A stretch of 27,544 bases of DNA from a virus (lineage: Duplodnaviria > Caudoviricetes), in the IMG/VR virus record IMGVR_UViG_3300005512_003411, positions 1 through 27,544 of that record; one strand, 5' to 3'. The position numbers and the translations under genes were made by a program. Positions 2,214 to 4,578 of the stretch are shown here, in pieces; within the stretch, counting starts at the first letter, position 1, and each line of letters begins with the position of its first letter. Below the pieces are notes generated by a model. It was not told where the DNA came from, made no database searches, and saw nothing but the letters and a program-made list of their open reading frames with translations.

Positions 2214-2242
2214 TTGACGGTTTGCCGTCAATCCCTTATAAT
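2214..2242 (+). promoter_or_regulatory. sigma70-type promoter, -35 within an inverted repeat
   Basis: TTGACG-N17-TATAAT; TTGACGG-TTTG-CCGTCAA at 2214-2231. Confidence 0.8.
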
Positions 2243-2758: not shown

Positions 2759-3012
2759 TGTTTGAGAAAGATGCCATTAACTTGACATTTGTTCATCCTT
2801 GGATGACTGTCTCTGATGCATTACTTTTGTTTGAAGATGCTTACGAAAAATTCAAAAATCAAAAAAAGTATCACGGACAAAAGACTGTATCTACCCTGAT
2901 GAATATCAGTTATGGCATTTGGCAAAGGGAACCAGAAAATTACGTGAGAGCTAGATTAGATCTCATAAAGTCACGGATGGACTATAACAGCACTGGTCGG
3001 GATACCCCCTAA
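2758..3012 (+). CDS. Phage hypothetical protein
   Basis: TAATG-coupled ATG at 2758; 3' end overlaps the structured RNA. Confidence 0.65.
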   Translation: MFEKDAINLTFVHPWMTVSDALLLFEDAYEKFKNQKKYHGQKTVSTLMNISYGIWQREPENYVRARLDLIKSRMDYNSTGRDTP

Positions 3013-3058
3013 GTTTCCTAGTTCTTTCAAAACTAGGTGGTGGAGTCATAAAGACCCT
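2968..3058 (+). ncRNA. Structured RNA, 5' part (manA-motif-like, unverified)
   Basis: Module AAG-TTT-CCTAGTT-CTT-TCAA-AACTAGG-TGG followed by hairpin GGAGTC-ATAAA-GACCC; same architecture as the modules at 3360-3447. Confidence 0.55.
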
Positions 3059-3064
3059 CAAAAA

Positions 3065-3071
3065 CTAAATA
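3065..3071 (+). promoter_or_regulatory. T4-like late promoter candidate
   Basis: CTAAATA about 25 nt before ATG 3097. Confidence 0.5.
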
Positions 3072-3096
3072 AAAACATAGAGTTTATAAGAGTAAA

Positions 3097-3360
3097 ATGG
3101 CAACAAGAGGAACGGCGGCAAAATCCGCAAGTGGCGCAGCGATGTCTAAGTATGATGTTGAAGTTGAAGCACGTTTGCAGGCACTGGAAGCAAAAGCACA
3201 CGAACAGTGTGAAGGTGGTTCTGGCGCTGGCGCAGATAGTGATAAACTTGCAGCACTCGAAACAAAAGTCGATAAACTTATCGAAATTTTAAATACTATG
3301 CCTTCAGTTCAAGAACAATGTCCTAAGGCAGATGATGGAAAACGTCGCCTTCCTGTTTGA
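3097..3360 (+). CDS. Small coiled-coil phage hypothetical protein
   Basis: EVEARLQALEAKAH and KLAALETKVDKLIEIL heptads joined by a Gly-rich linker. Confidence 0.8.
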   Translation: MATRGTAAKSASGAAMSKYDVEVEARLQALEAKAHEQCEGGSGAGADSDKLAALETKVDKLIEILNTMPSVQEQCPKADDGKRRLPV

Positions 3361-3462
3361 GGTTTCTTGCTTTACCTAAGAGCAAGTGGTGCGGATGGGG
3401 TTTATACTCCCGCCCTGTTTCTTGCTTCAGGTAAAAAGAGCAAGTGGCGTGCATGAAGTGAC
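3360..3462 (+). ncRNA. Structured RNA, 3' part with two pseudoknot-like repeats (manA-motif-like, unverified)
   Basis: Direct repeats GTTTCTTGCTT...AAGAGCAAGTGG at 3362-3389 and 3417-3447, separated by hairpin GCGGATGGGG-TTTATA-CTCCCGC. Confidence 0.65.
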
Positions 3463-3468
3463 CTTTCA

Positions 3469-3504
3469 GGGGTGGTTGTATAACCATCCCTTTTTTGCTA
3501 TAAT
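3469..3504 (+). terminator. Intrinsic terminator overlapping a sigma70 promoter for the glycan cluster
   Basis: GGGGTGGTT-GTAT-AACCATCCC-T6; TTGTAT(3476)-N17-TATAAT(3499) with TG extension. Confidence 0.8.
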
Positions 3505-3531: not shown

Positions 3532-4578
3532 ATGAGTGAATACAAGAAAACAGCACTTGTTCTTGGTGCTGGTGGGTTTATTGGAAGTCACATGGTCAAA
3601 CGACTACGTGAAGAAGGATACTGGGTGCGTGGTGTTGACCTGAAGACACCTGAGTTTTCTTCTACACAGGCACATGAATTTATTACTGGCGACCTTCGTG
3701 ATGTGACTTTTGTTCGTCGGTGTATTCAGTTCAAAGGATATCAAGGTAACTTCTACAACTCTGTACCAGAACGCTATCTACTTCCCTTTGATGAAATCTA
3801 TCAGTTTGCTGCTGATATGGGTGGTGCTGGATTCGTTTTTACTGGCGAGAACGATGCAGATATTATGCACAATTCTGTATCCATCAACTTGAACGTGCTT
3901 GAGGAGCAGCGTAAGTTTAATGAAAAAGTTGGCAATAAAACAAAGATTTTCTATTCTGGATCTGCTTGCATGTATCCAGAGCACAATCAACTAGATCCTG
4001 ATAACCCTGATTGCCGTGAAGAATCCGCATACCCCGCAGACCCAGATTCAGAATATGGTTGGGAAAAACTATTTTCGGAAAGGTTATACTTTGCTTACAA
4101 TCGTAATCATGGTATTCCTGTTCGCGTGGCTAGATACCACAATATATTCGGACCAGAAGGAACCTGGCAAGGGGGTAGAGAGAAAGCACCAGCAGCAATC
4201 TGCCGCAAGATCGCTTACCTCCCAGAACAGGGTGGTGCTATTGAGGTGTGGGGTGATGGAGAACAAACAAGATCCTTCCTGTACATCGATGAATGTATTG
4301 AAGCAACCCGTAGACTGATGGACAGTGACTTCATGGGTCCTGTGAACATCGGTTCAGAAGAGATGGTTACTATCAATGAACTGGTACATACTGCAGGTCG
4401 TGTTGCTGATAAGTGGGTAGAGAAAATTCATATTGATGGTCCTCTTGGTGTTCGTGGACGCAACTCAAATAATGATTTGATTCGCGAGAAACTTAATTGG
4501 GATTATTCTCAATCACTTGAGGAAGGTATTCGTAAGACATACACCTGGATTTCTGAACAAATTGCCGCATCTATCTAA
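3532..4578 (+). CDS. NAD-dependent epimerase, GDP-mannose 3,5-epimerase-like
   Basis: GAGGFIG, FAADMGGAGF, SACMYP, YGWEK, GGREKAPAAICRK are hallmarks of the GME-like SDR subfamily. Confidence 0.88.
   Translation: MSEYKKTALVLGAGGFIGSHMVKRLREEGYWVRGVDLKTPEFSSTQAHEFITGDLRDVTFVRRCIQFKGYQGNFYNSVPERYLLPFDEIYQFAADMGGAGFVFTGENDADIMHNSVSINLNVLEEQRKFNEKVGNKTKIFYSGSACMYPEHNQLDPDNPDCREESAYPADPDSEYGWEKLFSERLYFAYNRNHGIPVRVARYHNIFGPEGTWQGGREKAPAAICRKIAYLPEQGGAIEVWGDGEQTRSFLYIDECIEATRRLMDSDFMGPVNIGSEEMVTINELVHTAGRVADKWVEKIHIDGPLGVRGRNSNNDLIREKLNWDYSQSLEEGIRKTYTWISEQIAASI

Follow-up and report, generated by a model that had tools for sequence, protein, structure and literature searches.

Four RNA modules with tails complementary to tRNA 3' ends in the wcaG RNA locus of a T4-like cyanophage, a possible trap for host tRNAs

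The window, i.e., the whole 27,544-nucleotide stretch of DNA that was analysed, is a fragment of a T4-like cyanophage, and its closest records are Synechococcus phages (the source record is about 13% complete). An array of small RNA modules is found in it, surrounded by tRNA genes, a transaldolase gene and sugar-modifying genes. The features of this locus are as follows.

1256-1429, Phd-like antitoxin gene (phrog_375), between the tRNA genes and the transaldolase gene
2065-2213, neighbouring tRNA-Ile(UAU) and tRNA-Met genes, the former with an encoded CCA
2214-2242, plus strand, sigma70-type promoter candidate, TTGACG-17-TATAAT (11/12 matches)
2969-3009, plus strand, module 0: helix GTC (2970-2972)/GAC (2980-2982), weak second stem, UGGU at 2994-2997
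3011-3059, plus strand, module 1: H-type pseudoknot at 3011-3037, UGGU at 3038-3041, then a tail
3066-3071, plus strand, TAAATA box, candidate T4-type late promoter of the ORF, conserved upstream of the ORF family
3097-3360, plus strand, ORF for an 87-aa protein (phrog_35121), lying between modules 1 and 2 as an independent cassette
3358-3458, plus strand, full-length Rfam wcaG RNA (RF01761), consisting of modules 2 and 3 (89.4 bits)
3360-3415, plus strand, module 2: H-type pseudoknot at 3360-3386, UGGU at 3387-3390, then a tail
3414-3462, plus strand, module 3: H-type pseudoknot at 3414-3444, UGGC at 3445-3448, then a tail
3468-3497, plus strand, intrinsic terminator candidate closing the array, kept in relatives
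3476-3504, plus strand, sigma70-type promoter candidate for the epimerase gene: -35 TTGTAT at 3476-3481, extended -10 TGcTATAAT at 3496-3504
3532-4578, plus strand, nucleotide-sugar epimerase gene (PF01370, phrog_540), outside the array

A sequence-only reading of this locus had proposed three modules at 3011-3040, 3360-3389 and 3414-3447, and all three were recovered with the same stems. Module 0 at 2969-3009 had been overlooked, so that its count of three was too low. A module descriptor, derived from these same module sequences, has four matches on the plus strand of the 27.5-kb window, all within 2970-3447, compared with a mean of 0.65 matches per window in 20 dinucleotide shuffles. The same reading held that the stem sequences vary while pairing is kept, as in H-type pseudoknots, and both stems indeed covary among relatives, which were chosen by fixed anchors only without demanding pairing. 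In the last module, 99.9% of 759 cells are paired (69 sequences), and two-sided changes are found in three of the four S1 pairs and five of the seven S2 pairs, a level equalled in 0 of 500 shuffles; the sequences are kin, and therefore these shuffle counts are not probabilities. In the middle module, 93.7% of 540 cells are paired (54 sequences), with 98.7% in S2 and 82.1% in S1, where pairing is lower because the register shifts. The three pseudoknot modules are thus real. The second stem of module 0 is clear in sister subtypes but weak in the subtype of the window, and module 0 is therefore called a hairpin with a probable knot; it also bears putative GGA loops of the CsrA type.

The array belongs to a known RNA family. 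The covariance-model check against Rfam that had been suggested returned wcaG (RF01761) for modules 2 and 3, at 89.4 bits against a gathering score of 42 and spanning model positions 1-98. These two modules show the wcaG layout, in which two similar hairpins flank a middle hairpin and the last one is pseudoknotted, and they precede, in a T4-like cyanophage, the nucleotide-sugar epimerase gene to which wcaG owes its name. Modules 0 and 1 also match wcaG weakly at 2966-3052 (29.4 bits, E 0.002), under the gathering score. wcaG has been described as a probable cis-regulatory RNA of T4-like cyanophages, located upstream of exopolysaccharide genes (Weinberg et al. 2010, PMC2864571), and this view was restated in 2023-2025 (PMC9964418, PMC10665884, PMC12197685). 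The published alignment marks a pseudoknot for the last module only (PMC2864571, supplement S5), whereas both modules are pseudoknots here. Furthermore, the wcaG model comprises two modules only, whereas the real chain has 2 to 5, and a terminator and a separate promoter set the chain apart from the next gene.

The manA motif, which the sequence-only reading had named, is a different RNA. The manA model (RF01745) has no match in the window at gathering or at E up to 10 (run without a positive control), none genome-wide (in a scan whose controls were silent too), and none in six relatives, including the ORF-free S-SZBM1, at E up to 0.5. We thus rejected a manA-type RNA both here and in the natural ORF-free arrays that were used in place of an ORF-deleted window. 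In S-CREM1, manA and wcaG are both present, 370 nt apart, and a descriptor search found none of these modules within that manA. The two families are alike as cyanophage RNAs near tRNA and sugar genes (PMC2864571), but manA RNA forms kissing-loop cages (bioRxiv 10.64898/2026.07.01.735769), and nothing in the window array points that way.

The 87-aa ORF, its late-promoter candidate and the stop codon that overlaps module 2 were all confirmed. Module 2 begins with the last base of this stop codon, and TAAATA, presumably a T4-type late promoter by its consensus, occurs within 60 nt upstream of the ORF in all 80 related loci. The ORF product has more than 2000 relatives, but belongs to no Pfam family and to no named Atlas family above threshold. 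Among the 80 loci fetched by the ORF, 38 are without modules and 26 have the ORF between modules; in the rest the modules are only upstream (11, one of them cut by a contig end), only downstream (2) or farther off (3). In three module-free loci (L053, L060 and L077), the gene family and TAAATA are seemingly in a structural-gene region.

We then compared array architectures. The array loci were collected partly with patterns containing TGGT, and looser patterns gave mostly chance matches (full arrays in 1 of 120 bacterial-genome loci, 0 of 3, and 1 of 120). Full flanks are available for 162 distinct arrays, of which 87 are contiguous and 75 have a gene-sized gap. The commonest order, named after the tRNA partners described below, is Pro-Ala-Leu-Arg; among its 45 arrays, 21 are contiguous and 20 have the layout of the window. 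The contiguous forms that had been anticipated in relatives therefore exist: S-SZBM1, for example, has four modules and no ORF inside. A different gene is located inside the array in S-SRM01, and the ORF lies behind the terminator in S-SCSM1. Arrays range from 2 to 5 modules, any middle module can be missing, and genes of at least six kinds, told apart by motif and by inspection, are found at various junctions. Forty-eight gene-to-module junctions are within 3 nt of a stop codon.

It had also been proposed that GTCACG (2970-2975) pairs with CGTG (3448) or GTGAC (3458) and closes one RNA around the ORF. The letters are present, but the pairing is unsupported. CACG is fixed, whereas its 3' partner is CGTG in 48 of 107 arrays and CGAG, which breaks the pairing, in 59; GTGAC is present in one of the 107. 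The minimum-energy fold of 2960-3500, in which pseudoknots are not modelled, lacks this helix, and the long-range helix was rejected. The local helix of module 0, on the other hand, is GTC/GAC in 96 sequences, GAC/GTC in 30 and mixed in none of the 126. The distant partner is often broken and the two strands of the local helix exchange in step in all 126 sequences, so that the gene must lie between units that are autonomous. The notion of a split RNA carrying an ORF thus holds as far as a real gene lies inside the chain, but the two-part fold does not. The array is a chain of self-contained units, and the ORF is an independent late-promoter cassette. Words of one related locus (L279) were found in marine metatranscriptome runs, and contigs from four runs (three studies), one of them at 1008-1341, cover modules and the ORF; these contigs carry no information on strand, ends or level and are possibly DNA-derived, and so are no evidence of co-transcription.

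The terminator that had been placed at the array end is present at 3468-3497. Behind the last module, 129 of 143 relatives have a terminator (5.7% in shuffles), and 101 of the 143 have a sigma70-type promoter pattern with at least 9/12 matches (8.4% in shuffles). The -35 box is within the terminator hairpin in 96 of the 143 arrays, and the hairpin together with this box (3468-3504) resembles T4-type promoter-stem-loop cassettes. A terminator hairpin holding a -35 box is also seen behind the ORF in some module-free loci. The promoter candidate at 2214-2242 would transcribe the upstream genes and all four modules. The next gene behind the arrays varies widely. It carries a short-chain dehydrogenase motif in 47 of 116 arrays, a search that missed further cases; tRNA genes are behind the array in S-CREM1, and no sugar gene is annotated near the arrays of S-H34, S-CREM2 and S-N03. 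The terminator and promoter patterns argue that the RNA is not in the leader of the next gene and favour action in trans over a 5' UTR switch, as had been suspected. In three loci (L105, L115 and L252) a different pseudoknot-like element is found directly behind the last module, followed by a tRNA gene in L105 and L115; in these two it has no Rfam match at gathering.

Chance matches to the wcaG core proved to be tRNA-Leu genes on the other strand, and therefore we compared the module tails with the tRNA sets of two Synechococcus genomes (41 and 43 genes), taken as putative hosts. Each module ends with UGGN and a tail complementary to the 3' end of a mature Synechococcus tRNA, including CCA. 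Significance was assessed by permuting the tail behind UGG. The tail of module 0 (2994-3003) has 10 nt complementary to tRNA-Pro(CGG), equalled in 49 of 20000 shuffles. That of module 1 (3038-3048) has 11 nt complementary to tRNA-Ala(GGC) with one G.U (3/4000 shuffles, G.U allowed) and 8 nt complementary to each of the three Ala tRNAs; counting only the 8 Watson-Crick pairs, 298/20000 shuffles are equal. The tail of module 2 (3387-3400) forms 14 Watson-Crick pairs with tRNA-Leu(CAG) (0/20000 shuffles) and has 12 nt complementary to tRNA-Leu(GAG). In module 3, 10 of 11 positions are paired with tRNA-Arg(CCG) and likewise with tRNA-Arg(ACG); this tail alone is non-significant (11/150 energy shuffles; 9516/20000 by Watson-Crick run). 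CCA is gene-encoded in only one of the 41 and one of the 43 host tRNAs, and the tails therefore match mature tRNA. A prophage attachment-site remnant or an inverted tRNA gene was rejected, since UGG complements a CCA that the host genes do not encode.

The same pattern is found across the family. With a descriptor that makes no demand on the bases that follow, UGG is directly behind the pseudoknot in 241 of 247 distinct matches, and the next base is U in 109 and C in 132. In the main array set this base is always U or C, as pairing with A73 or G73 of the partner demands; the TGGT in the collection patterns forces Leu tails, i.e., part of the U cases, and not the 132 UGGC cases. Among the Arg tails, 135 of 136 are one of two forms with one mismatch each to Arg(CCG) and Arg(ACG), and the Arg tRNA ends hardly vary across the host family (matches in 60 of 61 genomes, variant ends in two). 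In cofolding, each of the four tails had the expected amino acid at the top, and removal of CCA cost 7.5-8.2 kcal/mol. Among isoacceptors, Ala(UGC) was preferred over Ala(GGC) and Pro(CGG) tied with Pro(GGG), and some cofolded complexes unfold tRNA arms. With the tRNAs of two unrelated bacteria, the summed best energies were -74 and -70 compared with -85 kcal/mol, and single tails match equally well. The phage's own kind of tRNA is not exempt, as the Pro tail can pair over 8-10 nt with 47 of 52 phage tRNA-Pro(UGG) genes. Taken as sequence evidence, these results make it quite probable that the modules bind tRNA 3' ends.

Some tails have further structure. The Ala tail (3042-3057 and relatives) folds back and leaves unpaired the A that would face U70 of tRNA-Ala, and the fold-back of the Leu tail similarly bulges AUG. 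The 3' side of a tail could pair with the displaced tRNA 5' strand in a four-way exchange. A variant of the Pro tail (L002 1472-1500, L091, L096, L098 and L109) has an inner hairpin and a 6-nt complement of the 5' strand of tRNA-Pro(CGG).

We further investigated codon demand, based on 16,440 host codons (60 loci) and 6,566 codons of the window. In host-minus-phage demand, the six partners rank 1, 2, 3, 8, 9 and 10 of 40 tRNA types, and the chance that the four best partners, which were chosen post hoc, are all in the top ten is 0.002. Per 1000 codons, the window phage has 13.7 CUG and 3.5 GCC. GCU (24.5), CUU (18.6) and CGU (13.9) are common in it, and they are also read by Ala(GGC), Leu(GAG) and Arg(ACG). 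wcaG is present in GC-richer 'cluster C' phages (PMC10665884), which looked like a counter-example, and we therefore examined S-H34, S-CREM2 and S-N03. They have 47.5-50.6% GC and four modules each, in the following arrays with switched tails.

L731:11904-12110, S-H34
L865:8005-8200, S-CREM2
L866:8012-8200, S-N03

In these three phages CUG (22-27 per 1000 codons) and GCC (14-24) are common, and CCG (2-3), CGG (1-3.5) and, where counted, GGG (3.5-4.7) are rare. They retain the tails for Pro(CGG) and Arg(CCG). In place of the Leu tail, S-CREM2 and S-N03 have a 14-nt match to Gly(CCC) (7 and 85 of 20000 shuffles, respectively), in which base 4 has become G, opposite U73; the third tail of S-H34 has a weak 10-nt match (1728/20000). 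The Ala tail is replaced in all three by a 10-nt match to initiator tRNA-Met (741/20000). The switched middle tails can be listed as initiator Met and as Gly(CCC) or His, and a further pseudoknot subtype occurs in these arrays. The tail switch, which represents one lineage, supports tRNA ends as the selected property; it fits depletion for Gly and not for Met, as the phage itself also depends on initiator tRNA-Met. wcaG was not found in 10 of 10 author-chosen Prochlorococcus phage records, nor in 151 host-family genomes (the window served as positive control, and 25 candidates were scored for each listed genome). Most Prochlorococcus hosts are AT-rich. A full four-module array is found in a contig filed under Acidimicrobiaceae (L410, CAYVOK010000038.1), probably a mis-binned phage contig.

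How might such a chain work? We lean, by a little, towards the four modules acting in trans and trapping host tRNAs that are dispensable to the phage. The array would make up the 3' portion of an early transcript starting from 2214-2242, and modules 2 and 3 would also be on a late transcript from 3066, with the ORF within the chain as a passenger. UGGN would pair with the single-stranded NCCA of a tRNA, probably uncharged, because the new helix would stack on the pseudoknot as in T-boxes and because EF-Tu covers charged ends. The geometry shared with the T-box UGGN thus suggests that free NCCA ends are captured first and that the acceptor stem is then invaded, whereby the tail would displace the tRNA's own 5' acceptor strand. 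Withdrawal of tRNAs for GC-rich codons would tilt translation to the AT-rich phage mRNA. Depletion of host tRNAs as the purpose of the array has, in our judgement, slightly better than an even chance of being right. We are more tentative, at somewhat below even, on a general reading in which wcaG would be one half of a programmable RNA device. The pseudoknot would be its unchanging clamp and the tail an interchangeable guide, by which selected host tRNAs are caught at their 3' ends, and the guides would be retuned to phage codon usage in order to take over translation.

The entire complementarity evidence applies equally to modules that bind tRNA ends without starving the host, which might shield tRNAs from tRNA-attacking defences, absorb uncharged tRNA and so dampen the stringent response, act as sensors of charging, or carry out chemistry on the tRNA end lying against the pseudoknot. 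The initiator-Met tail, the common GCU, CUU and CGU codons of the phage and the tRNA-Pro(UGG) match suit depletion poorly, and binding of this kind would be in keeping with an array located among tRNA genes near a Phd-like antitoxin gene, and with UGGN abutting a helix as in T-boxes (PMC7583486). However, the high host-surplus rank of the partners and the loss of the Leu and Ala tails in phages that themselves use CUG and GCC are left unexplained, and a long duplex would presumably inactivate the tRNA, which goes beyond shielding; we consider this explanation rather unlikely, if the least so among the alternatives. The modules could instead be RNA-stability elements or protein decoys, like type III antitoxins or nuclease blocks, with an incidental tRNA match. 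Tandem H-type pseudoknots before a terminator, and modules that often start at a stop codon (the 48 junctions), are what such elements might look like. It is the tail that is conserved and not the knot, however, and between lineages tails change from one tRNA end to another; no antitoxin RNA family matches even at E up to 10, and behind the terminator lies an epimerase gene. Such a role is improbable.

A cis-regulatory element or riboswitch for downstream sugar genes is the published class of wcaG (Rfam; probably cis-regulatory in PMC2864571), and the epimerase gene here and the dehydrogenase motif in 47 of 116 next genes agree with it. The terminators and promoter patterns described above, a terminator hairpin that does not overlap the module, and a next gene that varies and is at times a tRNA gene or without annotated sugar genes nearby make it very improbable. 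Similarly doubtful is a working RNA on the minus strand, in which the tails would be tRNA-like minihelices ending in NCCA, decoys for synthetases or tRNA nucleases. The Leu tail forms five acceptor pairs in 108 of 115 cases, and folding energies, mixed by strand, favour minus for the knot part of the Leu and Arg modules; Pro and Arg tails mostly form 2 pairs and Ala tails 1-3, 69 G.U cells in the last-module stems would become A.C mismatches, and genes, promoters and terminator are all on the plus strand. A minus-strand tRNA mimic is thus unlikely. The least credible is the earlier idea of one bipartite manA-type RNA with a long-range helix and the ORF looped out. Contiguous four-module forms and the pairable CACG/CGTG of 48 arrays, with a full 6-nt complement in S-SZBM1, speak for it; they are outweighed by the missing manA match here and in ORF-free relatives, the broken pairing in 59 of 107 arrays beside a local helix that covaries in 126 of 126, the 2 to 5 modules per array with middle modules lost and varied genes at the junctions, and the ORF found without modules in 38 of 80 loci.

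The proposed trap can be compared with known systems. In T-boxes, UGGN is fixed beside a helix on which the tRNA duplex stacks, and charged ends are rejected (PMC7583486). wcaG modules likewise have UGGN directly 3' of a helix and complementary to NCCA. Unlike T-boxes, the array has no Stem I, specifier loop or anticodon reading, the terminator lies behind the tail and does not compete with it, the modules would recognise their tRNA by 6-10 extra nucleotides of the acceptor and T stem, and the chain would be directed at four different tRNAs; no T-box family matches in the window at gathering or at E up to 10. Primer-binding sites of retroviruses and LTR retrotransposons start with UGG and complement about 18 nt of a mature tRNA 3' end. 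The tails also complement this end including the non-encoded CCA, but are 10-14 nt long, four in tandem and in a DNA phage, and no reverse transcriptase is found by Pfam among the 17 window ORFs scanned (record about 13% complete).

T4 reportedly induces cleavage of the host tRNA-Leu for CUG, via a nuclease, which the literature searched, including PMC4810235, did not confirm. Both cases would involve a T4-type phage disabling the host's major CUG-reading tRNA, by a nuclease in T4 and by an RNA complement with several targets here. Type III antitoxin arrays (ToxI, abiF) have tandem short H-type pseudoknots before a terminator. The window modules are also tandem pseudoknots followed by a terminator, but they are not near-identical, their conserved element is a tRNA-complementary tail, and the gene behind the terminator is that of the epimerase and not of a toxin.

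These results give named putative tRNA partners to wcaG, since 2010 a riboswitch candidate for sugar genes, and a known RNA family thus gains a longer architecture and a concrete proposed function. tRNA complementarity of wcaG is unmentioned in the accessible text and supplements of PMC2864571, and no wcaG-tRNA link was found in the literature searched, which covers subscription journals partly. If the trap reading is true, it would be a new viral way to control translation. It would complement the known Synechococcus phage tRNAs for AT-rich codons, in that the phage would supply what it needs and remove what only the host needs, and would be an RNA-only route to what T4 reportedly does with a nuclease. 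Exchangeable tails would also be a simple tool to block chosen tRNAs. Rare tails are also present among the relatives: one array (L263) has a 14-nt match, with wobbles, to Ile(GAU), and another (L805) has a perfect Arg(CCG) tail.
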